Source: a virus. Taken from it: DNA of 64,000 bases. Positions 1,607 through 19,753 of the stretch are shown here, in pieces. The notes below the pieces were generated by a model. The model worked only from the letters and a program-made list of their open reading frames with translations, was not told the origin of the DNA and searched no databases. The first letter of the stretch is position 1. Each line of letters opens with the position of its first letter. A program made the position numbers and the translations under genes. The stretch lies in the IMG/VR virus record IMGVR_UViG_3300025163_000003. One strand, written 5' to 3'.

Positions 1607-1652
1607 GGTTTAAATAACAATCAAAGATAAGATAGAAGGTGGTGAGAGAAGA

Positions 1653-2030: not shown

Positions 2031-2090
2031 AAGGATTAGTACCCTAAGTAAAGGGTTTAATCCGAATCTCCAAGAAGGAGGTGTTTCGGT

Positions 2091-2444: not shown

Positions 2445-2569
2445 TGTACTACATGAAGTGGACTTTAGAAGACTTAAAGAAACTGAGAATGCCTCAATAC
2501 ATTTGGATAGTGAAGTCACTAGAGAAACAGAAACGGATGGAGGCAAGAGCATTAAGAGGTAAAAAGTAA
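2444..2569 (+). CDS. 41-aa ORF in the -1 frame of the chaperone (putative T segment of a G/GT product; also has its own ATG in a TAATG overlap)
   Basis: ATG at 2444-2446 overlaps the chaperone stop. The ORF ends 1 nt before the tape-measure ATG at 2571 and is absent from the >=60-aa track. Confidence 0.4.
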   Translation: MYYMKWTLEDLKKLRMPQYIWIVKSLEKQKRMEARALRGKK

Positions 2570-2570
2570 G

Positions 2571-4946
2571 ATGACATTAAGATCAAATGTAATAGTAGGC
2601 TTTGAAGTTGCAGGAAGACCACTGCAATGGTTAGAGAAGACTCTTGACCGTTTTGGCATGAGAATGCGACTGACAGCCAGAGACCTACTAAGATTAGGTG
2701 GCACTATTTCCTCTTATTTCTCTAGAGTTGAATCAATTTGGTTAAGATTTCTACGTCTAGGAGATGTTTTTGCTGGAGGAATGGAAGAAGTAGAATGGGT
2801 ACTAGGAGATTTAGCTGATGTAGTGGGAGAAGCATTAGAACCTGCTCTTGAATTCTTAGCTGATATACTGGAAAATGTAGTAGACTATGCTGAAGAAAAT
2901 CCATGGTTACAATGGGCTATTATTCTACCACTTATAATTGCTTTAGTAGGTAAGTTAGCAGCTGGAATACTTAGGATGGTAGGTACTATCAAACTAGCTG
3001 CAGGAACATTGATGACATGGCACCGGGAAGCACTAGGCTTTGTTGATGGTATCAGATATGTCACTATAGCTTTGACAGAAGGAAAAGAAGCAGCTGATAA
3101 ATGGTTAGTTACCACAGGAAAACTTCAAAGAATGATAGCTGAAGAGAGAGACAGATTCTTCCAACTTAGAGAGGCATTAGCTGACAAGATACAAGTTACA
3201 CGACAGAACATCAGTTTTATTGACAAAGAAATAGCTTCAAGAAAACGAAATATAGCACAGATAGATCAACAGATAAATGCTCTTACAGGATTATTGGGAA
3301 CAAGTCCAGAAGTGGCTGATAGAATAGAAGAATTAACAGCAAAGAGAGAGAAAGAAAGTACAGCTATAGAGAAGTTACAAGCCAGAAGAGATAGAGAAGT
3401 CAAGAAGCTTTACAAGTATCAAGATCAATTGATTGAAGTTGAAGGAGAAATAGCTTCTATTAACAAGTTAACTAAAGAATATGCTAAACAGTCAAAGAAA
3501 CAAGAGAAAGGAGTCAGAGGAGTATTTACAACCGTAAAGAAAGGACTCAAACCAATGGCTAAGTGGGCTGCTATAGGAACTTCATTAATAGGACTTGCTT
3601 TTGGACTGTTTCTTGCATGGGAACCATTACAAGATCTATTTGAAGTTGTGACTGACATTCTATATGACTTACTTTCTCCATTAGAACCAATAATAGAAAG
3701 TTTTGCAGACTGGTTAGAAGAGAATCCTGATCTAGCTAAGGCACTTATACTCTTGATACTGCTCTTGCCTGCTGTATTTCTAGGAATGAAAGTTCTAGGA
3801 AAAGTGGGAGGAATACTAGGGAAAGTATTTGGTAAGTTAGGTGATATCTTAGGAAAAGTAACATCTCCATTTGGTAAACTGGAACAAGGAACATGGAAGA
3901 CATACTTGGCTGAAGCAGCATTGATAGGAGCAGTAGCTGCACTTATCTTTTCACTGGCTTACTTCTTCACTTCACTTATGAAGACTGGTGTGGGACTGTG
4001 GGAAGCAGTAGGTGCTCTGTCAGCTGTCTTTGCTGCTATCTTAGGATTCTTAGGTGGACTAGTGTTACTAGCTAGAGGACTAAGTACAGTATCTTCACAA
4101 GTGTGGATGGGAATAGCTGCTCTAGCTGCTCTAGTGGGAATAGTTACTCTTCTAACTTGGGCTTTCACTATGTTGCTTCAACCACTGACACAGATAGAAG
4201 GAGGAATAGCTGCATTGTGGAACTTAGTAGGAGCATTACTGGCACTGTTAGCTGGATGCACAATTTTGATAGCTGTTCTAGGTGCTCTAGGTCCTCTAGC
4301 TCTACTAGGAGCAATGGCATTCTTGATGTTAGGTGCAGCTGTCTTAATGGCAGGAACAGGATTCTATCTTGCTGGAATGGGTGCACAATTACTGGCTCAA
4401 GCAATAGGTTTCTTGATTGACAAATTGGTTGAAAGTATAAGTGTACTACCACAAGCTGTAGCACTCTTATTTGGTCTTGGTGCTGGACTTATGGCAGTTG
4501 GTATGGGAGGACTAGTAGCTCTTGCAGGACTAATGGCTGCATTCATGGGATTTACAATGTTCTCTACAGCAATTGCAATGACAGCAGGAGCTTTGTACAT
4601 GTTAGCAGGAGCAATTTCTGCTGTAGCTGCTGCTCTTAGAGCTGTACCTGACTGGGCAAGAGGAATAGTAGGAGGTTTCTTAGGTGGTCTTGCTTCTATA
4701 GGTAGAGCTATTGGAGGAATGTTTGGCATACCAGGAGCACAAAGAGGTGGTATAGTGGAAAGAGCAGGAATTGTCTATGTACATCCTGGAGAATTAATAG
4801 TACCAGCTAGAGTGACACCTGAAGTAGGAGGAGAATATCACAATACTTTCTTCATCACAGCTTACATCAGAGGAGAAGAAGACATTAGAGCATTAGCTGA
4901 AGAAATCAATAAATTGCAAGCAGCAAAGATAGGGAGGACTGTCTAA
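2571..4946 (+). CDS. tail tape-measure protein
   Basis: 791 aa. N-terminal coiled-coil region (e.g. REKESTAIEKLQARRDREVKKLYKYQDQLIEVEGEIASINKL) is followed by many Gly/Ala-rich hydrophobic segments. Canonical position after the chaperone pair. Confidence 0.8.
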   Translation: MTLRSNVIVGFEVAGRPLQWLEKTLDRFGMRMRLTARDLLRLGGTISSYFSRVESIWLRFLRLGDVFAGGMEEVEWVLGDLADVVGEALEPALEFLADILENVVDYAEENPWLQWAIILPLIIALVGKLAAGILRMVGTIKLAAGTLMTWHREALGFVDGIRYVTIALTEGKEAADKWLVTTGKLQRMIAEERDRFFQLREALADKIQVTRQNISFIDKEIASRKRNIAQIDQQINALTGLLGTSPEVADRIEELTAKREKESTAIEKLQARRDREVKKLYKYQDQLIEVEGEIASINKLTKEYAKQSKKQEKGVRGVFTTVKKGLKPMAKWAAIGTSLIGLAFGLFLAWEPLQDLFEVVTDILYDLLSPLEPIIESFADWLEENPDLAKALILLILLLPAVFLGMKVLGKVGGILGKVFGKLGDILGKVTSPFGKLEQGTWKTYLAEAALIGAVAALIFSLAYFFTSLMKTGVGLWEAVGALSAVFAAILGFLGGLVLLARGLSTVSSQVWMGIAALAALVGIVTLLTWAFTMLLQPLTQIEGGIAALWNLVGALLALLAGCTILIAVLGALGPLALLGAMAFLMLGAAVLMAGTGFYLAGMGAQLLAQAIGFLIDKLVESISVLPQAVALLFGLGAGLMAVGMGGLVALAGLMAAFMGFTMFSTAIAMTAGALYMLAGAISAVAAALRAVPDWARGIVGGFLGGLASIGRAIGGMFGIPGAQRGGIVERAGIVYVHPGELIVPARVTPEVGGEYHNTFFITAYIRGEEDIRALAEEINKLQAAKIGRTV

Positions 4947-5392
4947 TGGTAAAGTTAATAGAATACATTTGGGATCCAGACCAACATAAGTATGTTTCCT
5001 CAGGGAACACTTTCACTTTTGATCCTCCTCCTTCATCTATTCAAAAGAATGTCAAGTGTGAATGGCGTGTAAAGCACATTGGAAAGAATGAACTTAAGAA
5101 GTTCAAGTGGAGATACAGAAGAACTTCAGCTATTAAGTTGAGAGGAGTCTTACATTCAGAAAGTGACAGACTTACTCTAGAAACTTTAGGTACAAGAAAT
5201 GCTCTCTTCAAATTAGAGATAGACTTTCAAGAACCAAAGAGTGCAGGAGAAGACATTGGTTCTGCTTATCCTCCAACTGGAAGATATGGATACTTCATCA
5301 TAACAGAGATGGTCTTTCAAGGAGTACCAGGACAGAATGATATTCAATATGAAATAACACTAGAAAGAGTTAGAGAAGATCAGGTGGGCTAA
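4946..5392 (+). CDS. tail-tip/baseplate component (distal tail protein position)
   Basis: 148-aa ORF whose ATG overlaps the tape-measure stop (TAATG), immediately upstream of the fibre gene. Confidence 0.4.
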   Translation: MVKLIEYIWDPDQHKYVSSGNTFTFDPPPSSIQKNVKCEWRVKHIGKNELKKFKWRYRRTSAIKLRGVLHSESDRLTLETLGTRNALFKLEIDFQEPKSAGEDIGSAYPPTGRYGYFIITEMVFQGVPGQNDIQYEITLERVREDQVG

Positions 5393-5393
5393 A

Positions 5394-8300
5394 ATGCAAT
5401 ATCAAGTGATCATCAAAGACAAAAACACTGGTTCAACACTTTACACTATCGATGAAGTGAAAATTGAATATGTTGAGATAGAACTGAATCTGTCTGACTT
5501 GTCTAGATTTCATATCAAGGTATTGAATGATCCTCCAATGGACATTGAAGAAGGAGATCTACTGTACTTCCAAATACAAAACATTGGTACAGGACTAAAA
5601 ACTGTCATAGGAGGAGAAATCTTAAGAGCAAAGAAAGTAATTGATGAAGGAGAGAACTACCTTGAATTAGAAGGTGAAGATTTCTCTGCTCTATTGCAGT
5701 ACAAAACAATAACTTCTGCATGGGAAGACACAGATGCAACAGACATTGTTCTTGATGTTCTTTCTCAGTTTCCTGAAATAACAACTGGAACTTATGAGAG
5801 TGCAGGAACTATCTCTTATTCATGTACAGAAAAGACAGGTTTAGAAGTTCTCCAAGATCTACACAATTACACTGGTTTTGAATTCTATGTTACACCCAAC
5901 AAAGAACTCAAATGGTTTGATCCAAACGAACATACTGGGACGACACTTACTCTGTCTGATCTAGAAAACTATGAATGTTATGAAGAAGCACATAACATCG
6001 TAAACTTTGTTAAAGTTGTAGGAGATTATAGGAGTCCTTATCCGGAAAATGAAGCAGCTACAGAAAGTGACACTTCCAATTGGACTAGTAAAAATGGAAA
6101 GACAATTGAGTTAGTGAATTCTGGTGGATTAACTCCTAAAGTTGGTGACTACTGTCTAAGAGTAGGACCTTATTCTGGTGATGCCTCTGATGAAATTGTG
6201 TATGATTTGGGAGGAACTCTTGATCTTACTAAACCTGGTTGTTACAAGAAGATCGAAGCTTTCTATGGATTTGACTTTGAAGGAAAACAGAATCTCACTA
6301 CTACAATGAAAATAAGATTGTACACAGATGACAGCAACTACTTTGAAACACCTTTTGGTGGACATTGGGGTATTAACATCACTAAGTATTGGGAGAAGAA
6401 AACAGCTAAAGTAGGTCCTAGAAGAGGAGTCTGGTATGTCTATGGAAGTCCAGACTGGTCACAAATAACAAAAGTTGGTTTCTATTTTGAACTAAGTGGT
6501 TATTCAGATACTTGGTATTTCTATTTGGATGGTTTCCAATTTACAGGAGGACAGTATAATGCAACTGCATCAGATCAGACTTCACAGAATACATGGGGTC
6601 TAAGAAAAGCCAAGACTGTCAAAGACAACTCTCTAACTTCTGATGAAATGTGTCAAGAAGTAGCAAATGCTATTATTGCTAACTTCAAAGATCCAGTACC
6701 TGTGTTGGATAACCTAGAACTGTCAGAAGGAAATGAAACATTAGAACTAGGAAAACTGATTGATGTCCAAATACCAGAAGGAACATTCACTGACAAGAAA
6801 ATAGTAAAGATCGTTCACAAGATAGATGATGGTGACTTTATTACAACTCTTTCTCTTGAGAATCCACCTAAGACAATTAATGAATTGGTTGACAGTCTGA
6901 AACATAGAATTGAACATGAAGAGACTGAACCAATAATAGAAGAAGAACCTAGTCCTTCAGGAACAGAATATCATCCACCTCCTGACATGAGTGAAGCTGT
7001 AGATACAAGTCCTGATCCACCAAGTTTCACTTGTGCTAATATTTCAGTTGTAAGAGCAGAATCAGAGATAGAGACTAAAGTAGCAATACAAGTATCTATC
7101 CCAAGAGTAGAAGAAGCAGGAGGCTATCTAGTAGATTACAGAAGAACAGATGAACCTGAGTGGAGAAGCATTATAGTTGAACAACCTTCAGCTGGTCCAG
7201 CTACTGTTCTTATTTCTGATGTAGAACTAGGGAAAGACTATGAAGTACATGTTGCATCACTTTCAAAGTTAGGTACAGCATCTAATTTTGTACCAGATCC
7301 ACCATGTGTAGTAACAATAGAAGCAGACACTGTTCCTCCTCCTGCTCCAAGTACTATTAATGCATATGAACTGTTCAATGGAATTCTCTTAGAATGGCCT
7401 GAAGTAACTGCTGCTGACTTGAAATGTTACAATGTCTTGCATAACACTATTAATGACTTGAGTTCTGCTTCAACTATTGCAAAGATAGATGCTACAACTT
7501 ACTTGTGGAAAGTACAAGATCCTAGCACTGATTATGCTGAACAATATTTCTGGGTATCAGCTGAAGACATCTATGGAAATGAGAGTGACAAGACTGGACC
7601 AGCAAAAGGAACACCTGCAAGAGCTAAACCTATTGATCTAACTATAGAAACAAGACCATGGACTTCTGACATAGGAATAATTGAAGACCATAGAACTTTT
7701 GGTAAATTCTACTATGGAAGTTCTCCAATATACTATGATGTCTCTCCTGACACAATCACAGTTGGTTCAAACACTTACAATCAGTTTGTAAATTATGAAC
7801 CTGATTCTTCTGCCAATGTCGTTCATACTAGATCTAGCAGCACTTCTTATTACACTACTTATTGGGGTGTACGAGTATTCAAAGTAGACTCCTCAGGCAA
7901 TGAGTCAGAAATAACTGATGGGAACCCTGTTGCAATTGTATCAAGAACTTCTGATGGAGAAGGTGTTCAAACTACTACATGGTCATTTCCTGGTTGTACT
8001 CTTGATCCAACTGACAGAATTTGCATAAAATACTATTCTAGAATAGGCACATCTGACTGGGTAGAAAAACTTAACGTTGTGACTCCTGAATTAGGAGTTT
8101 CAAGTCTTCCCGCTCAGTTATGGAGATTCAAATACTACACGAAAAGATTAACTCTGTACTTTGATCAATACTACACTAACAATTATCTTTTCTTTGGAAA
8201 AGACAAGAACACTAGTTTTCTTGGTTTAGCTGATGGTTTCATTAAGTTTGCAGATGGTTCTAGTAAGTCAATTCTAAGAGACACTGATGGCACTAAATTG

Positions 8301-10241
8301 ACTTCATCAGTAGAAGGAGTTCACTATGTTTATTGGGAAGATGGTGTTTCAGACTTACAATGGTCAACAGATTATTCAGACGCAGTTGGAGAAGGTAAAG
8401 GTTTAATTGCAATAATAGATAGAAAGACTTCCGAACCTTCTTCTATACTTCCTTTCAATACTTACAAACCAACTATAAGTGCAGGTGTAATAGCTGCCAA
8501 AAGTATTTTAGCTGAACATATACGAGCCAATCAGATAACAGCAGATCATATAGTAACAGGTGCTATTCACAGTGATCATATTGCAGCAGGACAAATAAAA
8601 AGTGATCATATTGCCACAAGTCAGATTGAAGCTAAACACATTAAAGCAGGAGAAATAACAGCTGAAAAGTTAACTGTTGGCTTTGCCAACTACTTACCAG
8701 ATGGTGATTTTGAAATAGGAGATCTTTCCAAAGAATGGCAAGTAGAAACTGGTTCTGCAAGTCTAGACACATATGCTTATTCAGGAAATTATTCACTAAA
8801 AGTAACAGCTGATTATTACAATTCCGACACAGGAAACTATGAGGGACGAGTTCACAGTAGAACTTATATTCCATGTATCGGTGGGGAACGATTTTATATA
8901 CGAGCTAGATTAGACACAACCAACAATGCAAAAGCAAGAATAGAAATAGCCTTCTATGATCAAAACAAAAGTTATATTTCTTCAACTACTGCAATCTCAC
9001 TTCCCTTTACAGGAATTGATTGGACAGAAGGAAAAGTCTCATTTACTGCACCAGACAATGCCTCTTACTTTAGAGTCTACTGTATTGCATTTGAAAGTAG
9101 TAGTGGAGTGAGTGCTAATTTTGATGATATTTATATCAGGAAACAAATCTTCACAGAAGATATAGATGATGATGCTATAGTAGCAAGTAAAATCGCAGCA
9201 GGAGAAGTCAAGACAGAACATATTAGATTCAGTGGTACTCAACCTTCTCAAGTTGAAGCAGGAATGTTATGGTATGATTCTTCAGAACATCTGATAAAAT
9301 TTGCAGAAGGCCCTAATGCAACTGATTGGTATTACATTCCCAAATATCCACTTTATGAATCTATGGCACCTCAAGAAAACTTCATACCAAATCAAAGTTT
9401 TGAGTATGATAGAGATGGTGATGGACAACCAGATTATTGGGAACATCACTGGGATGAAGGAGGATCACCAACTTATGATTATGTTTCCGACCATACAAGA
9501 AAGGGAGGCAAAGCTGTCAAAACAACATGTGACGTAGGTGAAAAGGCAGGTTGGATATCCACAGTCTATATTCCCGTCGCTGAAGGACAGAAATACTATG
9601 CCTCGGTCTGGATCTATTCTGGAAGTGCGAATGCTAGTGGAACAGTCTATTTATTGGCTGAATGTTATGATGCAGAGAAAAATTGGATCAACTACGTAAA
9701 TTTCGCATCAACAAGTCCTCCAGTAAGCAGTTGGAAACAAGTGAGCGGTGTAGCAACTATTCCAACTAACACACGATATATAAGACTAGCATTCAAACAT
9801 GTAAATGAAGATGGTACAAACACAAAATCTGTTTGGTGGGATGACGTAACTCTAAGTGAACTAAGAATGTTACCAGCTTCAGCCTACAGCTCTTCCAGTA
9901 GCGAACTGACTAATATGCTCGAAGGTCAACATACGTTACTAAGCAAAACAGTGTATTGCAATGAAGAATCTTACCTTTGGATTATTGCAATATTCAAAAG
10001 AAAGAATCAAACTACTCAAGTCAGTTTCTTCTTTAAAGTCGACGGGAATGTAAAAGGTCTTACTTGGCCAGTCCTTAGTGAATCCTCTGATTACGTGACT
10101 GATTGCATCCAAGCCCTAGTTCCAGTATCAAAAGGCGATCACACTGTAGAATTAATCTGTTCAGTTGGGTCCTCACCAGCAGCAGCCTCGGTGTATCACA
10201 GGTACATGGTAATTCAAGTCCTAAGACAAATTTCTGCTTAA
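5394..10241 (+). CDS. tail fibre / receptor-binding protein with FN3-like and tandem carbohydrate-binding-module-like domains
   Basis: 1615 aa. Two FN3-like segments (aa ~540-750). A five-fold decapeptide repeat HIxxGQIxxD (EHIRANQITAD HIVTGAIHSD HIAAGQIKSD HIATSQIEAK HIKAGEITAEK) encoded around 8510-8670. Two C-terminal CBM4/9-like jelly-roll-looking domains (YSLKVTADYY...ANFDDIYI and NQSFEYDRDGD...VWWDDVTLSE). Confidence 0.7.
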   Translation: MQYQVIIKDKNTGSTLYTIDEVKIEYVEIELNLSDLSRFHIKVLNDPPMDIEEGDLLYFQIQNIGTGLKTVIGGEILRAKKVIDEGENYLELEGEDFSALLQYKTITSAWEDTDATDIVLDVLSQFPEITTGTYESAGTISYSCTEKTGLEVLQDLHNYTGFEFYVTPNKELKWFDPNEHTGTTLTLSDLENYECYEEAHNIVNFVKVVGDYRSPYPENEAATESDTSNWTSKNGKTIELVNSGGLTPKVGDYCLRVGPYSGDASDEIVYDLGGTLDLTKPGCYKKIEAFYGFDFEGKQNLTTTMKIRLYTDDSNYFETPFGGHWGINITKYWEKKTAKVGPRRGVWYVYGSPDWSQITKVGFYFELSGYSDTWYFYLDGFQFTGGQYNATASDQTSQNTWGLRKAKTVKDNSLTSDEMCQEVANAIIANFKDPVPVLDNLELSEGNETLELGKLIDVQIPEGTFTDKKIVKIVHKIDDGDFITTLSLENPPKTINELVDSLKHRIEHEETEPIIEEEPSPSGTEYHPPPDMSEAVDTSPDPPSFTCANISVVRAESEIETKVAIQVSIPRVEEAGGYLVDYRRTDEPEWRSIIVEQPSAGPATVLISDVELGKDYEVHVASLSKLGTASNFVPDPPCVVTIEADTVPPPAPSTINAYELFNGILLEWPEVTAADLKCYNVLHNTINDLSSASTIAKIDATTYLWKVQDPSTDYAEQYFWVSAEDIYGNESDKTGPAKGTPARAKPIDLTIETRPWTSDIGIIEDHRTFGKFYYGSSPIYYDVSPDTITVGSNTYNQFVNYEPDSSANVVHTRSSSTSYYTTYWGVRVFKVDSSGNESEITDGNPVAIVSRTSDGEGVQTTTWSFPGCTLDPTDRICIKYYSRIGTSDWVEKLNVVTPELGVSSLPAQLWRFKYYTKRLTLYFDQYYTNNYLFFGKDKNTSFLGLADGFIKFADGSSKSILRDTDGTKLTSSVEGVHYVYWEDGVSDLQWSTDYSDAVGEGKGLIAIIDRKTSEPSSILPFNTYKPTISAGVIAAKSILAEHIRANQITADHIVTGAIHSDHIAAGQIKSDHIATSQIEAKHIKAGEITAEKLTVGFANYLPDGDFEIGDLSKEWQVETGSASLDTYAYSGNYSLKVTADYYNSDTGNYEGRVHSRTYIPCIGGERFYIRARLDTTNNAKARIEIAFYDQNKSYISSTTAISLPFTGIDWTEGKVSFTAPDNASYFRVYCIAFESSSGVSANFDDIYIRKQIFTEDIDDDAIVASKIAAGEVKTEHIRFSGTQPSQVEAGMLWYDSSEHLIKFAEGPNATDWYYIPKYPLYESMAPQENFIPNQSFEYDRDGDGQPDYWEHHWDEGGSPTYDYVSDHTRKGGKAVKTTCDVGEKAGWISTVYIPVAEGQKYYASVWIYSGSANASGTVYLLAECYDAEKNWINYVNFASTSPPVSSWKQVSGVATIPTNTRYIRLAFKHVNEDGTNTKSVWWDDVTLSELRMLPASAYSSSSSELTNMLEGQHTLLSKTVYCNEESYLWIIAIFKRKNQTTQVSFFFKVDGNVKGLTWPVLSESSDYVTDCIQALVPVSKGDHTVELICSVGSSPAAASVYHRYMVIQVLRQISA

Positions 10242-12104: not shown

Positions 12105-12362
12105 TTAGTCCCATAGCCAGAAAGCTACAATAACTAACATTAGACCTATCATGATCCAAGCACAGAACATTACATAGGCTTCAGTGTTCAACATGTACCA
12201 GAAAGGCAATACTTCAATAACTTTCTTGTCTGCCCAGACATAAGGAGCACATAACAAGTCTAGTTGCCACAGTCCTATCCAGAAGAGAGAAAGACCAAGT
12301 AACAAGAGAACTATTTCTTTAGTGTGTTTCTTTATCTTCTGAATGACATATCTCAATTTCAT
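12105..12362 (-). CDS. small membrane protein, paralog A
   Basis: 85 aa with 2 TM helices. Shares the motif WQLDLLCxPxVW and topology with 12375..12683. Confidence 0.4.
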   Translation of the reverse strand: MKLRYVIQKIKKHTKEIVLLLLGLSLFWIGLWQLDLLCAPYVWADKKVIEVLPFWYMLNTEAYVMFCAWIMIGLMLVIVAFWLWD

Positions 12363-12374
12363 CTTTATTCACCA

Positions 12375-12683
12375 CTACATTTCTTTGATGAGGCTGTAAA
12401 TAAACCATCCTAAGACAAGAATGAGACCAAAGAAACTAATGAAGTTCAGGAATAACAAAGTGTCATAAGCTTCACCAACTGTTGTCTTCCACAACCAACA
12501 CTGGAAATAGTCATCAGCATATCTGCCTATAGGATGACACCATCCTGGTTCCCATACTGGTCTTACACATATCAGATCCAATTGCCAAATAGCAAACTGA
12601 TGAACTACAATGCAAAGTGCTACTAAGACAAATACCCATACCAATTGTTTCCTGTATTTCTTAGCAAATGCACGCAACTTCAA
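12375..12683 (-). CDS. small membrane protein, paralog B
   Basis: 102 aa; WQLDLICVRPVWEPGWCHP motif between TM helices; tandem duplicate of 12105..12362. Confidence 0.4.
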   Translation of the reverse strand: MKLRAFAKKYRKQLVWVFVLVALCIVVHQFAIWQLDLICVRPVWEPGWCHPIGRYADDYFQCWLWKTTVGEAYDTLLFLNFISFFGLILVLGWFIYSLIKEM

Positions 12684-12952
12684 CTTTCTATCCCTCTTTC
12701 TATTTCTTTCTTTTCACCCATTTTAATTCTTCTATAATGCACATTTTCTACTAGACCAAACTTCTTTAGAATTCTGAGAACAAAAGAGGCTTGGTGTTGT
12801 TGATACTTCAATGGATATTCACCTTCAATACAGTACAGTCTTCCATTAGTCTTTGAAATTAGGACAAGAGGTTTGTTGTCATATTGCACACCAATGAATG
12901 AAGGAGTCTCAAAGACATTGACTGTTCCTTTGATGTTCAGAAGACCATACAA
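12680..12952 (-). CDS. hypothetical protein
   Basis: 90-aa ORF with TTG start and no nearby ATG; extent uncertain. Confidence 0.25.
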   Translation of the reverse strand: MYGLLNIKGTVNVFETPSFIGVQYDNKPLVLISKTNGRLYCIEGEYPLKYQQHQASFVLRILKKFGLVENVHYRRIKMGEKKEIERGIES

Positions 12953-13143: not shown

Positions 13144-14043
13144 TTAATTCCCTCCATCTTCAGGAGAGTTCACCTGATAGTGATCCTCTCCTGTTATGAC
13201 TTTCAACAGTCCCTCCTCCAAAGATATTTTAGGTTTCCAACCTAATTTTCTTATCTTGTTGTCTTCTTTTATTTCTTTCCTTTCCCAGTTGACAGGTGGT
13301 TCTGCATCAGTTAATATGACAGGTTTGAAACCATACATTAGTTGTCCTATTAGCAGTCCAAGTTCATAAATTGTCAGTTGATGATTTGTTCCTACCTCAT
13401 ATATTTCTCCCACTTCTCCTTTTTCCATGACTGTTATTAGAGCTTCAACTGCATCAGTGATGTATACAAAGTCTCTTACATCAAGTCCAGTTCCTCTGAT
13501 GTGTAACACATTTGGATTTCTTCTAAGTTTCTCTATGAAGTCAGGAATGACAAAACCTAGTCTCTGTCCTGGTCCATAAACATTCCAGAATCTGACAATA
13601 CTTGCATTCAACTTACGTTTCTTGACTGCTGAAAGAATGTATTTCTCTGCTGTTCTCTTGCTTATAGCATAATGAGAGTCAGGAGCATACTTTATTTGTG
13701 CAGTTGAAGTGAAGATCATCCTACAACGATATTTCACAGCCAAGTCTATTACATTCAATGTTCCAATCACATTTATTTTCAAGTCCCATCTAGGATTTAT
13801 AGTAGCTATTCTTGGTTCAGGATTAGCAGCAAGATGGAAGACAACGTCACAATCTTTCAACAGTGTATCCAACTGGAACAGATCTGTCACATCACAATAT
13901 TTCCAATATCTTCTAAGTTTTCCATCTCTGGGTTCTTTTATGTCAGCTATAATGACTTCATGTCCATCTTTCAAGAGTCTTCTAGCTAGATACGTTCCTA
14001 TGAAACCTGAACCACCAGTTATTACAATTTTCACTTCAGACAC
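13144..14043 (-). CDS. NAD-dependent nucleotide-sugar epimerase/dehydratase (extended SDR)
   Basis: Rossmann motif ITGGSGFIGTYLARRLL and catalytic YxxxK (YAISK). Confidence 0.85.
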   Translation of the reverse strand: MSEVKIVITGGSGFIGTYLARRLLKDGHEVIIADIKEPRDGKLRRYWKYCDVTDLFQLDTLLKDCDVVFHLAANPEPRIATINPRWDLKINVIGTLNVIDLAVKYRCRMIFTSTAQIKYAPDSHYAISKRTAEKYILSAVKKRKLNASIVRFWNVYGPGQRLGFVIPDFIEKLRRNPNVLHIRGTGLDVRDFVYITDAVEALITVMEKGEVGEIYEVGTNHQLTIYELGLLIGQLMYGFKPVILTDAEPPVNWERKEIKEDNKIRKLGWKPKISLEEGLLKVITGEDHYQVNSPEDGGN

Positions 14044-15134
14044 CTCTTCACTACATCTACTACTTCTTTAGCTTCTTCCTCTGTCAACTTGTTGTGTATA
14101 GGTAGAGAGACTATTCGTTTATAGACATATTCTGCATTATGGTGTTGTGTGTGCTGGAAACACCAAGACTTTTGTAGGTGTACTGGCTTCCATGTAATTT
14201 TAAGTTGAATTCCTTCTTTCAAAGCTTCTTTCACAATTTTCAGTTGTTTCTTTCTTGGTACTAGTATTCCAAATAAGAAATAAGGATGGACACATGGATG
14301 GTATTCTCTTGGAACACACTGATATTCCACTGTGTCACCTAATTCATCTTTATAAAGAGAAGCTATTTCTTGTCTGTGCCGTAGAAACTTAGATAATTTC
14401 TTCATCTGAACAACACCTATAGCAGCTGAAGTCTCTGGCATTCTAAAGTTGAACCCTATTCTTGAATGTTTGTATTCCCATGGTTGTTTCTTCTTGTAAT
14501 ATCCTTGGTTCACTATTGCTTTCATCTCTTCATAGAAGATCTTATTGTCAGTTAATATTGCACCTCCTTCTCCTGTGGTAACTATCTTAGCTGAGTGGAA
14601 AGAGAAAGTAGTTATATCAGCAATTGAACCTAACCGTTTGCCCTTGTACATTCCACCTAATCCTTCAGCTGCATCGTCCACCACTACTAATCCTTCTCTC
14701 ATCAAAAGATCATAGTCAGCAGATAGTCCTCCAACATCTGTTGCTACTATAACATTCTTCTCTTTCACTTTAGAGACTTCATATGGATCAATGTTCCAAG
14801 TATCTTTCTGGCAGTCAACTAAAGTGATCTTGTCAGCAAAAGGAACAGCAGCATTTACAGTTGCTATGAAAGTAAAAGTAGGAGCACACAATTTTAGTTC
14901 TCCCAGAAATTCTTTCAGGAAGAAATATACTGTCATCAATGCAGTAGTTCCATTGCAAGTAGCTATTGCATATTTTGCTCCTGTATATTGACAAAGTTTT
15001 CTTTCAAACTCTCTTACCAGTGGTCCATTTCCACCTATCCAAGTAGAATCTACAACTTCATTTAAGATTTCACGTTCTTCTTCACCAATATCTGGACAAG
15101 CCCAAGGTATTCTTATTTTGTATCTAGTACCCAT
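14031..15134 (-). CDS. DegT/DnrJ/EryC1/StrS-family PLP-dependent sugar aminotransferase
   Basis: Motif FSFHSAKIVTTGEGGAILTDN (PLP-lysine context) and overall ~367-aa size. Confidence 0.85.
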   Translation of the reverse strand: MGTRYKIRIPWACPDIGEEEREILNEVVDSTWIGGNGPLVREFERKLCQYTGAKYAIATCNGTTALMTVYFFLKEFLGELKLCAPTFTFIATVNAAVPFADKITLVDCQKDTWNIDPYEVSKVKEKNVIVATDVGGLSADYDLLMREGLVVVDDAAEGLGGMYKGKRLGSIADITTFSFHSAKIVTTGEGGAILTDNKIFYEEMKAIVNQGYYKKKQPWEYKHSRIGFNFRMPETSAAIGVVQMKKLSKFLRHRQEIASLYKDELGDTVEYQCVPREYHPCVHPYFLFGILVPRKKQLKIVKEALKEGIQLKITWKPVHLQKSWCFQHTQHHNAEYVYKRIVSLPIHNKLTEEEAKEVVDVVKRCLK

Positions 15135-15922
15135 TTGTCTCCTCTCCTCACATATCCTACTTTTTCAAGTTCTGACTCAGGAAGAACTCCTCTCTGAACA
15201 TAATATTCAACTGGAAGATGATATTCTCCCTCCTTAAGAACATTAGCATGATAAATTTTGATGTATGGAAGAGCATAGACTTTGTATCCTAGTTTTCTTG
15301 CATTCTTACAAAATTGTAGATGTGGAGCAGGATTCTCCCATCTGACTCTCTTGAAGACTTCTCCTTTTATCAGTATGAAAGTACCAACAGAATCAAGTTC
15401 AACAGGTTTCTTTTCATCTTTGAATGGTGGATTCAAGGAGTCATAGACTTTACCATTCAAGACTACTTTGTCAAATCTATACCCATTTATTCTGAAGACA
15501 TAAGTGTCAAAGAACTGTTTTGTTCCTTCAATGTAGACATAAGGAGCAACAATGTCTTTGTTCACTTTCACCATTTCCTTGAGGGTATTTCTCGGGACTT
15601 GAACAACATCAGTATCAGCAAACAGGACATACTCTTCATCTTTATAGAGTTCCTTGAATGCATTGCACAATTCAGCCACATACAATGAACTTCTAACTGG
15701 CATGTGAATAGGAAATTCTTCATACACTTCATACTTGTAGGAATGTTTCTTGTGAAAGTCAAGAATTATTTGTAAAGTGTTGTCCTTTGACTTTCCATAG
15801 ATCCATACCCAACGTAATTTAGTTTTAGGATAATCCAACTTATTCATAGTTGCTAGAAAACGAGGAAGATACTTGGCATCATTCTTGGTCAATAGACAAA
15901 TCATTATTCTAGGCCACTTCAT
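15113..15922 (-). CDS. GT-A fold glycosyltransferase (GT2-like)
   Basis: N-terminal MICLLTKNDAKYLPRFLATMNKLDYP and DxD-like FADTDVVQV; lies between the aminotransferase and the acetyltransferase. Confidence 0.5.
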   Translation of the reverse strand: MKWPRIMICLLTKNDAKYLPRFLATMNKLDYPKTKLRWVWIYGKSKDNTLQIILDFHKKHSYKYEVYEEFPIHMPVRSSLYVAELCNAFKELYKDEEYVLFADTDVVQVPRNTLKEMVKVNKDIVAPYVYIEGTKQFFDTYVFRINGYRFDKVVLNGKVYDSLNPPFKDEKKPVELDSVGTFILIKGEVFKRVRWENPAPHLQFCKNARKLGYKVYALPYIKIYHANVLKEGEYHLPVEYYVQRGVLPESELEKVGYVRRGDKWVLDTK

Positions 15923-16424
15923 TTCTTTTCACCTCTTTCAGAACAAGTTCCATTTCACATCTTGTTTTATTGTCTGGGAAGAAAGTAACTATCTTCCATC
16001 CAAATTTCTGATACAATTTCAAGGCAGCTTTATTTCTTGTGTCCACAGAAAGACATATTTTCTCTACTCCCAGTTCTCTTGCTATTCTTAAAATGTACTT
16101 GACATGTTCAGTCCCTATTTTTCTTCCTCTGTAAGATGGATGAACTACTATTCCAAATCTACAGTGTTTCTTGTTGGGATAGAATCTGTCCAAATATGCA
16201 AGAGAGATAATCTTGTCATCAAGTGTTCCAACAGTGAAGAGGACATTGTCAGTTGAAAGAATATTAGAGTAAGCAGTTTCTGCATCTCTTCCAAATCTAT
16301 ACCAATGTCTCCATGTTTCTTCATCCAGTTCATTCAGGAATTCTTTAAGTTTTCTCTTGTCTGTCAAACATGAGAATTTTACTCTTTCCATTGTTGAGTT
16401 GAAAGATGTTTGCAATATCTTCAC
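15909..16424 (-). CDS. GNAT-family N-acetyltransferase
   Basis: Acetyl-CoA-binding motif VHPSYRGRKIGTEHVKYILRIARELGVEKICLSV...ALKLYQKFGWK. Confidence 0.75.
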   Translation of the reverse strand: MKILQTSFNSTMERVKFSCLTDKRKLKEFLNELDEETWRHWYRFGRDAETAYSNILSTDNVLFTVGTLDDKIISLAYLDRFYPNKKHCRFGIVVHPSYRGRKIGTEHVKYILRIARELGVEKICLSVDTRNKAALKLYQKFGWKIVTFFPDNKTRCEMELVLKEVKRNEVA

Positions 16425-16426
16425 CT

Positions 16427-17704
16427 TTATGCTATTCTCTTTAGTTTTTTCTTAGAAGTCCTGGGTATTTCATCTGCTATTTCTTTCAAGAAAGGTATCC
16501 AGTGTTTATCTATGGCTACATCCCATGTCTGTCTTCTTGCATATTGCAGTCCTCTCTTTGCATAGTATTTTCTCTTGTTAGGACTCTGATATGCTTCAGT
16601 CATAGCATCAGCAAATCCTTCAGGGTCAGGAATTGAAGACAAACCATTCAACTGAGTGTAGACATAAGTTGCAGGTTTCACCATCCAACCTGCTCTTCCA
16701 TTGTCCACTCTTTCTATCAGTGCAGAGAAACCATTTACAATAACAGGTATTCCACATGCTTGAGCTTCTAGAACTGGCAGACAGAATCCTTCACGTCTTG
16801 AGGGAAGAACAAAGACATCCATACAGTTGTAAACTTTAGCCATTGAACTCTCTGGCAGTCCTAACACTGAAGCAGTATAGACATCATTCCATATTATCCA
16901 CTTGTCAACATTCTCTTGTTTAGCAAGTTCTATCAGATTTCTTCCTCTCTCATTTGTTGGATCTGTATGTATGAAAAGTCTTGCATCTTTAACTGCATTT
17001 GGATTCTGTTCCAAGAAAATTCTGAAAGCCCTGAACAGACAGTCCCATCCCTTTCTAGGTTCATCATCATTGTTTGCAGCTACAACACCAAACAAGAAGA
17101 GATCTTTAGGAATACCAAAATGTTGTCTACATTTCAACTTGTCCATAGGTTTGAAGATATTTATGTCAACACCATGTGGGATATAAGTAGCATCTATTCC
17201 TGCTTTCTTCAACACTTGAACTCCATGTTTACTAGCTACTGCCACCCATTTATAGCTTCTAAATACAGACAACCATTTCTCTGGATAAGAATCATGATCA
17301 ACTGGAGAATAACAGATAGAATTTTCTATCAATTCTGCAAACTTTCTAGACACCCAGAAATCAGCACACCAAACAGCAACATCACAATTTAATCTCTTAT
17401 AATGGTCTCTAACAGTATAGAAACCAAGAGGATCATCAGATCTTTTCTGAACAGGCAATACAAACAGACCTTTGAAGTTGACTATTCCAGGAGTCTGAAG
17501 TCCATAGTAAGCTGAACAGATAACTGAGAATCCTCTGTTGAAAAGACCAAGAGCATTGTAATAAGTTACTTTCCCATAGCCACTACGGATATATGGAGCC
17601 ACTGAATGCCACAGAATCCTGAGATCTCTCCAGTCAACTTTCTCTTTCTTCTGTTCAGGACCTTTTAGTTCTATTTCTAGTCTCGATTCTTTCATGTATC
17701 TCAC
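16427..17704 (-). CDS. GT-B fold glycosyltransferase family 1 (GT4-like)
   Basis: Signature FVLPSRREGFCLPVLEAQACGIPVI (E-x7-E). Confidence 0.8.
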   Translation of the reverse strand: MRYMKESRLEIELKGPEQKKEKVDWRDLRILWHSVAPYIRSGYGKVTYYNALGLFNRGFSVICSAYYGLQTPGIVNFKGLFVLPVQKRSDDPLGFYTVRDHYKRLNCDVAVWCADFWVSRKFAELIENSICYSPVDHDSYPEKWLSVFRSYKWVAVASKHGVQVLKKAGIDATYIPHGVDINIFKPMDKLKCRQHFGIPKDLFLFGVVAANNDDEPRKGWDCLFRAFRIFLEQNPNAVKDARLFIHTDPTNERGRNLIELAKQENVDKWIIWNDVYTASVLGLPESSMAKVYNCMDVFVLPSRREGFCLPVLEAQACGIPVIVNGFSALIERVDNGRAGWMVKPATYVYTQLNGLSSIPDPEGFADAMTEAYQSPNKRKYYAKRGLQYARRQTWDVAIDKHWIPFLKEIADEIPRTSKKKLKRIA

Positions 17705-17954
17705 CTGATGGAATCTTTAATCCTTTATCTATCTTCTTAAGTTCATAAGATGCTATTTCAGTGACATATCCACCTTGATGCTTCATTATCCAGACTTCAA
17801 CTGGAAATTCTTGTCCTAGTTCATACTTGAAGTCAACAGTGAAGTTCTTGTGAGATTCATAACAACGTAGTGCTTCTTCTTTAGTCTTGTATATTTCTCC
17901 ACATCCCTTACATCTCCAACCTTCCACTCTTTCTATTTTGTCTCTTTCTTCCAT
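17655..17954 (-). CDS. small Zn-ribbon protein
   Basis: CKGCGEIYK...C pattern; 99 aa. Confidence 0.35.
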   Translation of the reverse strand: MEERDKIERVEGWRCKGCGEIYKTKEEALRCYESHKNFTVDFKYELGQEFPVEVWIMKHQGGYVTEIASYELKKIDKGLKIPSGEIHERIETRNRTKRS

Positions 17955-18280
17955 TCAAACAGACCTCCTTTTCTATATGTCTTGATTACTTCTATCTGAA
18001 AAGATTCAAGACTTATTTCACCTTTGTCCACACTAAATGTTACTCTGTTTGTCTTTCCTTCAACTATTGTTCCACAGAATGGACAGAAAAGAGTTATGTC
18101 TGAACCCATGTCATATATTCTAGCATGTTTCAATTCCATGAAAGCTTTACAGTTGGGACAACAAGGAAGAACAGGCTGTCCCAACACTGCTTTCAATATT
18201 GACTCTTTGTCTGAAGGAAACAATTCTTTGGGAATGTCAATTATTCCTACAAACTTGAAGTTGAAGAATTCAGAGGACAT
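17933..18280 (-). CDS. small Zn-ribbon protein
   Basis: CCPNCKAF...CPFCG four-Cys pattern; 115 aa. Confidence 0.4.
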   Translation of the reverse strand: MSSEFFNFKFVGIIDIPKELFPSDKESILKAVLGQPVLPCCPNCKAFMELKHARIYDMGSDITLFCPFCGTIVEGKTNRVTFSVDKGEISLESFQIEVIKTYRKGGLFEWKKETK

Positions 18281-19310
18281 TTTCCAACTCCTTCACAGCT
18301 TTATCCCATGTCCAACGTTTAGCATTTTCAATTGCTTTTCTCTTTGTCTTTTTGTATGCTTGTTCTACTTCCATCAAGAATCTCATCTTTCTATACAAGT
18401 CTGGTACAGATATCAGACCAATTCTTCCAACATTTGTTTCCAGGAATTCATTGACTTTGACATACAATGCTCCATTGCCAAGTACTTCTCTACTTGCTCC
18501 ATGTTCAGAAGCAATTACTGGTACACCACATGCTTGAGCTTCCAATGCTGGTAGACCAAATGATTCTGTGCCAGGAGAAATGTACACATCCAAAGTTCTC
18601 AAGAAGTCTCTCACTCCTTCTCTAGATAGTGGAATACCATGTAACTTTTGTTCAATGAACACTGGAGAAATCTTAAGTCTTCTTGACAGTTCCAGTAGGT
18701 CATAATGTCCTTCTGCTGATGCAGCTATTGCTAGTATTCCTTTTCCTAGTCTCTTGTAAGCATAAAATACTCTAGGCAATTGCTTTCTAATGTCATTTAG
18801 ACCAATATATCCAAATCTGAATTCTCTCCACATTTCTTGTGTAGGAGTAAAGAAAGAAGTGTCAACTCCATGTGGCACTACTTCTGCTTTAATCCCTGCC
18901 TTCCTCAGAATTCTAGCAGAATACTTGGAAGGTGTAATCACTTTGTCAAATTTCTTTATCAGTTCTTGATAGTGAAGTGGAACATCTTCACCTTCATATG
19001 GCAAATACAAAATCTTCTCCATCCTGAAGTTCTTTATCTTGTCTCCTATTTTCTCTAGGAAGTAACAAGAATGGAACATAATTAATCTGTCAGCATCAGC
19101 TAATTTCTTGGCATAGTAATCCAATTGATAATTCTTCTTGAGTGGATAAACAGAGACATGTTCATTTAAAGTGATAGGCAGTCCTTCATAACCAAGTGAG
19201 AGACAGAAGAATTTGTGTTGCATTCTCATTGTCATTTCATAAGTCACAGTACCAAAAGAAGTACCCAGTAAAGGATAATCTGACAACCAGATAATCTTCA
19301 ACTCTTCCAC
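18270..19310 (-). CDS. GT-B fold glycosyltransferase family 1
   Basis: Signature SFGLPALEAQACGVPVIASEHG. Confidence 0.8.
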   Translation of the reverse strand: MEELKIIWLSDYPLLGTSFGTVTYEMTMRMQHKFFCLSLGYEGLPITLNEHVSVYPLKKNYQLDYYAKKLADADRLIMFHSCYFLEKIGDKIKNFRMEKILYLPYEGEDVPLHYQELIKKFDKVITPSKYSARILRKAGIKAEVVPHGVDTSFFTPTQEMWREFRFGYIGLNDIRKQLPRVFYAYKRLGKGILAIAASAEGHYDLLELSRRLKISPVFIEQKLHGIPLSREGVRDFLRTLDVYISPGTESFGLPALEAQACGVPVIASEHGASREVLGNGALYVKVNEFLETNVGRIGLISVPDLYRKMRFLMEVEQAYKKTKRKAIENAKRWTWDKAVKELENVL

Positions 19311-19753
19311 CTCTTGATTATCTTACAAAGTTTTCCTGTCTTCAAGTTGAGAGTTCCTGGAAGTATAAACTTAGCCATTTCATCCTTCACTATTTTCACT
19401 TTATATGGCAATGTGAACTTCTTAAGTTCTTCAATAGAACCCAGGAAGAGTTCAAGGAACAAGACATAGTCTTTACCGTCAAACACTAAAGTTGATCTCA
19501 CTTTCTTCTTGTGATATTCTTCAGCAATTTGTTCTAAGATTTCCTTCTTTCCTTTCAACATCACTACATCAATTATAGCTGTTCCTGGAACAGGCTTTCC
19601 ATTGTACCATGTTGTGAAAGAATAGAGTCCTATCTCACAAGACTTGTTGTTTTGAATAGCTTCTTTCACTCTCATCTTCAACTCTTCTATACTCAGTATA
19701 ATTCTATTCTCTTTGAATCCTACTCTAGGAAATCTTTTGAGCATCTTTCTCAC
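19298..19753 (-). CDS. hypothetical protein
   Basis: 151-aa ORF translationally coupled between PolB and the GT1 gene. Confidence 0.35.
   Translation of the reverse strand: MRKMLKRFPRVGFKENRIILSIEELKMRVKEAIQNNKSCEIGLYSFTTWYNGKPVPGTAIIDVVMLKGKKEILEQIAEEYHKKKVRSTLVFDGKDYVLFLELFLGSIEELKKFTLPYKVKIVKDEMAKFILPGTLNLKTGKLCKIIKRWKS

Follow-up and report, generated by a model that had tools for sequence, protein, structure and literature searches.

We analysed a 64,000-nt stretch of viral DNA (IMG/VR record IMGVR_UViG_3300025163_000003; in the following, the window is this whole stretch and all position numbers refer to it) with regard to a gene island for aminosugar synthesis and glycosylation on its minus strand at 13144-19310. 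An earlier note, made from the letters of the sequence, had counted seven genes in this island. The list of open reading frames (ORFs) shows eight overlapping minus-strand ORFs between 13144 and 19310 instead, i.e., six enzymes and two small ORFs. All junctions from the DNA polymerase gene (PolB) down to the gene of the short-chain dehydrogenase/reductase (SDR) either overlap or show a spacing of only 2 nt. The genes named in the note are present at their coordinates and on the minus strand, with Pfam support far beyond chance. The features discussed below are, in order of position:

12680-12952, minus strand: conserved small ORF of 90 amino acids (aa), just downstream of the SDR gene; island membership uncertain
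13144-14043, minus strand: extended SDR, NAD-type and GalE-like (PF01370, E=1.1e-43); the last enzyme gene of the block
14031-15134, minus strand: pyridoxal phosphate (PLP)-dependent sugar aminotransferase of the DegT/DnrJ/EryC1 family, DegT in the following (PF01041, E=5e-84)
15113-15922, minus strand: glycosyltransferase of GT-A fold (PF03452 Anp1, E=6.5e-16)
15909-16424, minus strand: GNAT acetyltransferase (PF00583, E=2.6e-16)
16427-17704, minus strand: GT4 glycosyltransferase (GT-B fold) "b" (PF13692, E=9.3e-18; PF00534, E=5.3e-15)
17655-17954, minus strand: small Cys-containing ORF of 99 aa; no Pfam family, one CxxC motif
17933-18280, minus strand: small Zn-ribbon-like ORF of 115 aa; no Pfam family, two CxxC motifs (residues 41 and 66)
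18270-19310, minus strand: GT4 glycosyltransferase (GT-B fold) "a" (PF00534, E=8.8e-12; PF13439, E=1.6e-9)
19298-19753, minus strand: conserved ORF of 151 aa between PolB and the first GT4 gene; island membership uncertain
31554-32249, minus strand: sugar-1-phosphate nucleotidyltransferase (PF00483, E=7.2e-22), 12 kb from the island

We regard both the existence and the viral nature of the island as secure. The G+C content is flat (0.36-0.39 at the island, 0.35-0.40 over all 64 kb), the skew does not change between the island and its flanks, the neighbours on either side are viral genes, and related viruses carry the island at the same position. The left end of the window, on the plus strand, contains genes for two tail-tube paralogues, for a tape-measure-like protein of 791 aa and for a fibre of 1615 aa (5394-10241) that includes a carbohydrate-binding module; an HK97-type capsid gene is found just outside the window. 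The remainder, on the minus strand, holds PolB, an ERCC4/XPF nuclease, RadA/Rad51, ParB, ribonucleotide reductase, ClpP and an RNA ligase. Independent assemblies from ENA, JGI and Logan data contain the same sequence, and proteins identical to those of the window, from the island as well as from outside it, are encoded on a JGI contig of 106,197 bp; the genome comprises at least about 106 kb. About 30 kb of it outside the window (contigs L123, L128 and L132) encode structural genes, a ConA-lectin protein, a nuclease-ligase fusion and small ORFs, and no sugar genes were found in this part.

One might alternatively assume host DNA at a provirus junction, a case the earlier note had itself named as speaking against its proposal, or a chimeric assembly, given that fragments of this virus group were binned into archaeal metagenome-assembled genomes (MAGs). 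The respective MAG assignments come from contigs of 3-4 kb and conflict with each other, i.e., they probably represent viral contigs swept into bins. With the independent assemblies, the viral genes on both sides, no composition break, no integrase domain in the scanned ORFs and synteny in at least seven related viral contigs, we consider a host origin hardly credible.

By its gene content, the window is assigned to a head-tailed, archaeal-type virus; the virus stems from hydrothermal sediment. The nearest deposited viruses with regard to PolB are haloarchaeal tailed viruses (25-28% identity), and a DNA similarity search against deposited phages and archaeal viruses gave no match for the island. 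Two MAGs were considered as evidence on the host. A GP88-family protein at 61394-62002 (minus strand) has the same sequence as RLJ09859.1, an annotated protein of an Aenigmatarchaeota MAG, and an SDR with 58% identity is located on a 3-kb contig that is binned as an Archaeoglobales MAG and labelled Guaymas Basin. Both were rejected as host evidence for the contig sizes (3-4 kb) and the conflict of assignments mentioned above.

To compare the island between viruses, we used the contigs of SDR homologues as relatives (denoted by L and a number) and assigned orthology by a tblastn matrix. At least seven related viral contigs (17-144 kb) show the gene order of the island. The common order is PolB, a small ORF, a GT4, a small Cys ORF, a second GT4, the Anp1-like GT-A, a variable part, DegT, SDR and a small ORF; converging tail-fibre genes come after this conserved string, and the tail-fibre module of relatives contains a further small GT2-like gene. 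Depending on the virus, the variable middle encodes an ATP-grasp ligase, methyltransferases, a phosphoadenosine phosphosulfate (PAPS) reductase, an F420-type luciferase-like oxidoreductase, fusions of about 920 aa of a GT-A with a sulfatase-superfamily domain, a TagF-like glycerophosphotransferase or a phosphonate set. The latter is found between GT-A and DegT in L004 (95 kb) and L074 (72 kb) and consists of a phosphoenolpyruvate (PEP)-mutase/cytidylyltransferase fusion, a fragment of a thiamine pyrophosphate (TPP)-dependent decarboxylase and a Fe-alcohol dehydrogenase, accompanied by a TagF-like glycerophosphotransferase and a GT-A/sulfatase-superfamily fusion of 918 aa. The island of the window is the minimal form of the cassette, since its variable part is reduced to the GNAT gene alone. 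The conserved ends of the cassette are GT4-Zn-GT4-GT-A on the one side and DegT-SDR on the other.

The key question is which reaction the SDR catalyses. The earlier note had combined it as a dehydratase with the aminotransferase and the acetyltransferase into the textbook route to an acetamido-dideoxy hexose of bacillosamine or viosamine type. The two motifs it had pointed out are found, i.e., TGGSGFIG at residues 9-16 and YAISK at residues 125-129. In an alignment to human UDP-xylose synthase and T. maritima GalE, the catalytic triad is T114/Y125/K129, and the protein thus shows the Rossmann GxxGxxG and the S/T-Y-K signature that are common to dehydratases of RmlB, GMD and LegB type. D34 at the end of beta-2 presumably selects NAD rather than NADP. 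In 4,6-dehydratases and the related decarboxylases, the Thr is followed by a dyad that carries out the beta-elimination, i.e., D-E in RmlB, S-E in GMD, LegB and UDP-xylose synthase, or D-K in PseB and PglF. In the window SDR, the residues after T114 are A115-Q116 (T-A-Q), and the clade shows mostly A-A at these positions (consensus S-A-A). No D-K follows T114, such that the T-D-K motif of the PseB/PglF/CapD type is absent as well. An epimerase that lacks the dehydratase residues, which the earlier note had listed among the outcomes against its proposal, is hence what we find. The alignment does discriminate between SDR classes, as the S-S-E of the SDR in the 144-kb relative L125 (217 bits on LegB) and the S-A-C of a second SDR in L007, known from GDP-mannose 3,5-epimerase and fucose synthase, fall into the same columns.

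The SDR also differs in its loop between T and Y, which is shortened by 13-20 residues. T114 and Y125 are spaced by 11 residues compared to about 25 between S/T and Y for the substrate loop of a normal GalE, and the deletion is common to the whole clade. The short spacing recalls the PseB/PglF/CapD family, the residues do not. All NCBIfam scores are far below the respective cutoffs: RmlB (TIGR01181) is the top family with 120.7 bits (cutoff 365.1), followed by LegB (TIGR04180) with 95.5 bits (cutoff 475), while GalE (TIGR01179) reaches 61.3 bits (cutoff 262.3) and PseB (TIGR03589) 49.5 bits (cutoff 407.75); gmd is not among the best 25 families. The closest solved structures by sequence are T. 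maritima GalE (4zrm, top match with E=2e-36), UDP-xylose synthase and Pyrobaculum GalE. This is also reflected in the structure model (predicted local distance difference test, pLDDT, of 92.6), whose top folds are the C4-epimerases 3aw9, 4zrm and 6wj9. Homologues with 45-61% identity form a small, mainly viral clade of roughly 28 clusters. Within 185,579 reference genomes (GTDB) this short-SDR clade is nearly absent, with a 3-kb contig as the sole match, and a scan of IMG/VR with a short-SDR profile yielded one close locus (L008) besides 65 generic SDRs. Judging from alignment and model, the SDR is not a canonical dehydratase.

The aminotransferase function stands as proposed. DegT matches PF01041 with 283 bits over residues 15-362, and its PLP lysine, located in FSFHSAKIVTTGEGG, is kept and aligns with the lysine of 7b0m and of the perosamine synthetase 3bn1. 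Best scores are obtained for 4-aminotransferases, i.e., PseC (263.5 bits, cutoff 423.5) and LegC (244.5 bits, cutoff 420), both under cutoff, as well as perosamine synthase; JGI names the clade of roughly 55 members "perosamine synthetase". DegT orthologues with 44-55% identity are found directly upstream of the SDR in L004, L005, L007, L008, L074, L075 and L076. The two genes overlap or adjoin in every relative, the pair of the window is translationally coupled, and the pair is adjacent also in L075, a glycan locus of cell type. Because of this conserved overlap or adjacency in viruses and in the cellular locus, we take DegT and SDR to act in consecutive steps. L125 shows a different arrangement, where the DegT orthologue is directly followed by a distantly related GNAT overlapping its end, and the LegB-like SDR is located 1.5 kb further. 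There, an SDR is predicted to fill the keto-forming slot of the pathway. In the about 94 kb of genome inspected, we found no other redox enzyme or dehydratase.

These observations allow us to weigh the textbook route, i.e., that the SDR is a 4,6-dehydratase which together with DegT and GNAT yields an NDP-4-acetamido-4,6-dideoxyhexose (NDP, nucleoside diphosphate) of bacillosamine, viosamine or N-acetylperosamine type. The two top NCBIfam families of the SDR are indeed dehydratases (dTDP-glucose 4,6-dehydratase, then LegB), 4-keto-6-deoxy sugars are the substrates of PseC, LegC and perosamine synthase alike, L125 combines DegT and GNAT with an SDR carrying the S-E motif, and Mimivirus has such a pathway with a dehydratase, R141 (6vlo), that is among the structural matches of the SDR. 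On the other hand, A115-Q116 replaces the dyad, the RmlB and LegB scores reach only 120.7 of 365.1 and 95.5 of 475 bits, the deletion affects the loop that forms the sugar pocket, and the nearest structures are epimerases. The L125 enzyme does not help here either, as with only 28% identity the window SDR is not its orthologue. Since the SDR lacks the dehydratase residues, the dideoxy-aminosugar route is not what the sequence supports; we regard it as unlikely, and an acetamido-dideoxy product is not predicted by this gene set on its own.

A second explanation takes the SDR for a plain C4-epimerase that supplies the glycosyltransferases with another donor (e.g., Gal or GalNAc), while DegT uses a keto sugar from a host dehydratase. 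It fits the triad-only active site and the JGI label "UDP-glucose 4-epimerase" of the SDR homologues. It also fits the closest solved relatives, 6wj9 and the thermophile GalE enzymes 4zrm (T. maritima), 3aw9/3icp (Pyrobaculum) and 8rdg (P. horikoshii), where the latter match best (E=2e-36 to 2e-27, template modelling (TM) score about 0.8) and likewise combine the S/T-Y-K triad with no acid/base dyad. The identity to these enzymes is about 30%, however, and neither the loop deletion, which is not found in characterised epimerases, nor the strict pairing with DegT in every relative and in the cellular locus is a trait of GalE. Given in addition the GalE score of 61 bits versus the cutoff of 262 bits and the near-absence of the clade from the 185,579 reference genomes, this explanation seems possible but doubtful to us.

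With regard to the sugar donor, the nucleotidyltransferase that the earlier note had placed outside the island is real. Its best NCBIfam match is the heptose-1-phosphate guanylyltransferase HddC (79.9 bits versus a 300-bit cutoff), and its best PDB matches are the mannose-1-phosphate guanylyltransferases 7whr and 7d72. A homologue with 31% identity is located near the DegT-SDR pair of L007. GDP-sugars are indicated by this ManC/HddC likeness and by the GDP-mannose 3,5-epimerase-like SDR in L007. We thus predict a nucleotidyltransferase of GDP-sugar type, which is a possible supplier of the activated donor.

The GT-A enzyme matches PF03452 (Anp1) with 59 bits (cutoff 28.8) in two partial stretches, the best of which covers 48 residues; for PF00535 (Glycos_transf_2) it yields 21 bits, which is under the cutoff. 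Its DxD motif (D103-T-D105) is invariant in 27 homologues. The whole family comprises only 38 clusters among 5.8 billion, none of which has a functional name; proteins of giant viruses and phages match the window GT-A, too. The model (pLDDT 95.7) resembles COLGALT1, Mnn9, TarS, LH3, a Pyrobaculum mannosyltransferase and Mimivirus R699 with TM scores of about 0.6, where Mnn9 (3zf8) holds rank 8 by fold (TM score 0.62), behind COLGALT1 (GT25). Sequence and model therefore place the GT-A in a small, almost unannotated family that appears to be related to GT62 (Anp1/Mnn9) and GT25. In the 112-kb relative L005, the orthologue (1496-3271) is split near residue 140 by an intein with a LAGLIDADG domain; its identity is 72% before and 61% after the intein. 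Another protein, P0134, is a GT-A fusion of 464 aa whose N-terminal domain is LicD-like by eye only.

That an N-acetyltransferase is encoded holds for the GNAT fold (PF00583, 60.4 bits), whereas a specific sugar-N-acetyltransferase signature is missing. The best NCBIfam matches, RimI (37.6 bits) and PseH (36 bits, cutoff 93.1), are both under cutoff, and among solved structures a Sulfolobus protein acetyltransferase (3f8k) is closest. The GNAT gene adjoins GT-A in L007 as well, and P0127 is a natural fusion of GT-A and GNAT (427 aa) whose GNAT half matches the window GNAT. Based on this fusion found elsewhere, the GNAT is considered tied to GT-A and not specifically to DegT. Together with the GNAT that follows DegT in L125, the fusion also provides the context by which the GNAT is linked to the pathway. 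Far from the island, the window encodes a second, unrelated RimI-like GNAT (46528-46986, minus strand) with a similar PseH score of 33 bits.

Both GT-B enzymes, labelled "family 1" in the earlier note, are over the Pfam cutoffs of Glycos_transf_1, i.e., CAZy GT4, and keep the E-x7-E motif (EGFCLPVLE at residue 305 in "b", ESFGLPALE at residue 249 in "a"). Orthologues show 58% (L005), 50% (L076) and 42% (L125) identity for "b" as well as 57% (L076) and 37% (L125) for "a". A Pfam "GT4-conflict" match of one GT4 led to a conflict-system reading, which was dropped as the PADLOC defence models gave no meaningful match. The small ORFs between the two genes had been described as two Zn-ribbon proteins. 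This fits the 115-aa protein with its two CxxC motifs, for which we found no tblastn match in the related loci and only sub-threshold matches to Zn-binding families. The 99-aa protein has a single CxxC only, and its homologues (38-49% identity) in L076, L005 and L125 are found at the same position between the GT4 genes. With regard to the two ORFs at the margins, the 151-aa ORF has no Pfam, PHROG or PADLOC family and a homologue with 34% identity at the same position in L125, while the 90-aa ORF, likewise without a family match, has homologues (41-49%) downstream of the SDR in L004, L005, L008, L074 and L076.

Given these findings, we consider it moderately likely that the island is a cytoplasmic, soluble, virus-encoded module for the synthesis of an NDP-aminosugar and a short glycan, with virion proteins as the presumed target. 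The route would start from a nucleotide sugar, probably a GDP-hexose or GDP-heptose, which is provided by the ManC/HddC-like enzyme or by the host. The loop-deleted SDR would generate a keto sugar by C4 oxidation without 6-deoxygenation, as known from Cj1427, or else the host may supply the keto sugar. DegT would transaminate it to an NDP-4-amino sugar, whose amine would be acetylated by the GNAT before (on the donor) or after the transfer by its partner GT-A. Finally, a short oligosaccharide would arise through GT-A and both GT4 enzymes; its acceptor, accessible from the cytoplasm, would most likely be virion proteins (tail fibre or capsid). Within the genome of this archaeal head-tailed virus, the island is located in the "enzymatic arm", at its distal end. 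We assign the keto-forming step to the SDR, as a keto sugar is required by DegT and no redox enzyme other than the SDR accompanies DegT in all cases. Virion proteins are favoured as acceptors since the assembly of tailed virions takes place in the cytoplasm and no membrane segment is predicted in any protein of the island; the small GT2-like gene in the tail-fibre module of relatives points in the same direction.

Cj1427 is a non-dehydrating SDR that acts as C4-dehydrogenase on GDP-heptose and recycles its tightly bound NADH with alpha-ketoglutarate (PMC10680097). Since a glutamate-dependent DegT releases alpha-ketoglutarate, i.e., the NADH acceptor of Cj1427, a coupled cycle of SDR and DegT is conceivable. 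Like the role proposed for the SDR, Cj1427 oxidises a GDP-sugar at C4 and releases the 4-keto product without 6-deoxygenation (PMC10680097), and the guanylyltransferase of its heptose pathway is the best score of the window nucleotidyltransferase. In contrast to the proposed pair, Cj1427 feeds epimerases and reductases but not an aminotransferase. Furthermore, SDR and Cj1427 are not closely related in sequence, such that the likeness is mechanistic and an analogy only. If this analogy is fully extended, the SDR clade, which is nearly restricted to this archaeal virus group, would be a non-dehydrating C4 oxidase in a closed couple with DegT, a self-contained viral machinery would put a 4-amino-4-deoxy (not 6-deoxy) hexose or heptose on the virion, and the adjoining cassette with its phosphonate, glycerophosphate and amino-acyl decoration genes would be a rapidly exchanging "glycan coat" locus; in this complete form, we regard the proposal as quite unlikely. 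Septacidin SepI was also considered as a precedent for an SDR oxidase combined with an aminotransferase and rejected, as it is a GMC flavoenzyme and not an SDR.

Several points weigh against a soluble module that modifies virion proteins with an aminosugar made by SDR and DegT. First of all, the enzyme activities and the acceptor are predictions. Cj1427 is not among the 63 PDB matches of the SDR at E<=1e-10, and the triad-only, GalE-like SDR could be a plain C4-epimerase, in which case DegT depends on a host-made keto sugar. The about 17-20 kb of the genome beyond the inspected parts could hold a true dehydratase. With regard to the acceptor, the C-termini of the capsid and tail-tube proteins lack the Ser/Thr-rich tails that are glycosylated in mycobacteriophages, and the 18 N-x-S/T sequons of the fibre are only mildly above the about 12 given by a rough composition-based estimate. 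In archaea, soluble GT2 and GT4 enzymes at the cytoplasmic face also build N-glycans on dolichol phosphate. Given such soluble enzymes for lipid-linked glycans, the lack of a transmembrane segment is also compatible with a target in the host envelope, and the TagF-like and LicD-like genes of relatives fit a membrane-anchored polymer. Due to the resemblance of the GT-A to GT25/COLGALT1, we also searched the structural proteins for G-X-Y (collagen-like) runs and found none.

The latter points of the acceptor question relate to the suggestion, already made in the earlier note besides fibre glycosylation, that the island remodels the host envelope. Here, dolichol-linked N-glycan precursors, the S-layer or other surface glycans would be altered for receptor masking and superinfection exclusion, while virions stay undecorated. 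The hypervariable middle of the cassette, with its phosphonate, TagF-like, sulfatase-superfamily, LicD-like and methyltransferase genes, resembles the diversification of surface antigens, and membrane-anchored polymers are the normal substrates of TagF-like and LicD-like enzymes. Moreover, the DegT-SDR pair occurs in a cellular locus together with a gene of the exosortase/archaeosortase family, and serotype conversion is, besides virion and DNA glycosylation, a known role of viral glycosyltransferases (PMC12619734). Against this stand the solubility of all island enzymes and the inspected parts of the genome, which show no flippase, polyprenyl-phosphate glycosyltransferase, oligosaccharyltransferase, integrase or lysogeny module. 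We consider envelope remodelling a minority option, with about the same weight as the plain epimerase has for the SDR.

Glycosylation of viral DNA bases as an anti-restriction measure was considered as a further target. The island directly follows the DNA polymerase gene within one string, the window encodes a nucleoside 2-deoxyribosyltransferase-like protein and an HD protein, and phage glycosyltransferases do glycosylate DNA (PMC13326640, PMC12619734). Known DNA glycosylation needs a thymidylate-synthase homologue that creates the acceptor hydroxyl (PMC13326640), yet no ThyA/ThyX-like domain was found in window ORFs of at least 190 aa or in the about 30 kb outside (L123, L128, L132), with the caveat that the remaining about 17-20 kb of the genome lie outside this search. 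Since GT4, GT62-like, DegT and GNAT enzymes are furthermore typical of glycan synthesis, a DNA target is very improbable.

Beyond the island, we made a number of observations on the genome. The tail-tube paralogues (1217-1606 and 1653-2030, plus strand) are adjacent and similar in size, and both match Phage_tube_2 at E of about 1e-9. Just downstream of the island, where the structural and the enzymatic arm converge, two small paralogues (12105-12362 and 12375-12683, minus strand) are strongly hydrophobic with probably two transmembrane helices each (by eye); one of them has a homologue with 53% identity in L005. A run of four auxiliary genes (41848-43092, 37508-38095, 38079-38636 and 39947-40864, all minus strand) contains a full-length glutamine synthetase (E=3.6e-89), a ClpP protease, a nucleoside 2-deoxyribosyltransferase-like protein and an SPFH/Band-7 protein. 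At 43583-45253 (minus strand), we find a eukaryote-type topoisomerase IB (Topoisom_I_N, Topoisom_I and Topo_C_assoc, E=1e-49 to 1e-15), which is also present in the 144-kb relative (L125, 20238-20777); to our knowledge, this type is rare in archaea and prokaryotic viruses. A small ORF with an Alba domain lies at about 56496-56753 (minus strand; the position was mapped from a gene call of L128). Outside the window, L132 encodes at 4917-8660 a 1247-aa fusion of a nuclease with metallo-beta-lactamase fold and an ATP-dependent DNA ligase; the next protein, of 771 aa, matches LigD phosphoesterase weakly. The ENA assembly of one sample breaks near 34555-34985 into contigs of 73,856 and 43,127 bp, whose extrapolated overlap of about 430 nt might mark a repeat. 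A complete circular genome of 73.9 kb was ruled out, since the right half of the window is located on the second ENA contig and the 106-kb JGI contig encodes the same genes. An exact 40-mer taken from outside the window had no match in IMG/VR. The scan for promoters and terminators, which does not model archaeal promoters, gave counts as expected from shuffled sequence, and a tRNA scan found none.

Finally, we compared the island with known systems. The fibril clusters of Mimivirus and the Megavirinae likewise are encoded by the virus, run independently of the host and combine nucleotide-sugar modification (SDR, DegT-type enzyme, acetyltransferase) with several glycosyltransferases in clusters that vary between lineages. 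For Mimivirus, Piacente et al. are said to have described in 2012 a UDP-viosamine route of the dehydratase R141, the aminotransferase L136 and the acetyltransferase L142. Structural matches connect both systems, i.e., R141 (6vlo) for the SDR and R699 (9dzs) for the GT-A. The island differs in belonging to a head-tailed HK97 virus with an archaeal host, in the absence of R141's dehydratase dyad from the SDR, in its generic GNAT tied to GT-A and in the nucleotide, which is probably GDP rather than UDP. We know of no aminosugar-synthesis genes in mycobacteriophages. As far as the work of Freeman et al. 2023 is cited in PMC12619734, their virion proteins are glycosylated by the phages' own glycosyltransferases. 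According to the same account, they share with the island the tailed virus type, soluble glycosyltransferases, the cytoplasmic location and gene sets that vary between phages; the modified sites are, as reported there, Ser/Thr-rich C-terminal tails of capsid and tail-tube proteins, i.e., tails that the window proteins do not have. Phage genes for serotype conversion are counted among the closest systems as well.

With regard to the virus type, the head-tailed viruses of ANME-1 (anaerobic methanotrophic archaea, group 1; Nakonvirales, PMC9894754) also stem from Guaymas-type hydrothermal sediment, encode PolB and an HK97 capsid, and consist of a structural and an enzymatic arm, where multigene insertions vary the latter (PMC9894754). 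Compared to ANME-1 and haloarchaeal tailed viruses, the genome of the window virus is larger (at least 106 kb), and its PolB reaches only the 25-28% identity given above for haloarchaeal tailed viruses. Glycosyltransferases are not mentioned in the main text of PMC9894754, and our literature search found nothing specific on such islands in archaeal Caudoviricetes. In summary, the island would work like known systems with four differences, i.e., the archaeal head-tailed virus, the non-dehydratase, loop-deleted SDR clade, the tiny GT-A family and the modular cassette with conserved ends.

For giant viruses, chloroviruses, cyanophages and some mycobacteriophages, glycan synthesis by virus-encoded enzymes has been documented well, for archaeal head-tailed viruses barely. 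For gene sets like the one studied here, the dyad beside the catalytic Thr should be checked before "epimerase/dehydratase + DegT + acetyltransferase" is read as a dideoxy-aminosugar route. If our reading is true, SDR and DegT would constitute a compact, thermophile-derived enzyme pair for 4-amino sugars that needs no dehydratase. An uncultivated lineage of archaeal viruses would then possess an autonomous glycosylation toolkit with a conserved core (two GT4 enzymes, the rare GT62/GT25-like GT-A and the pair of DegT and short SDR) and a freely exchangeable middle, i.e., a natural system for the diversification of viral or host-surface glycans in hydrothermal archaea.

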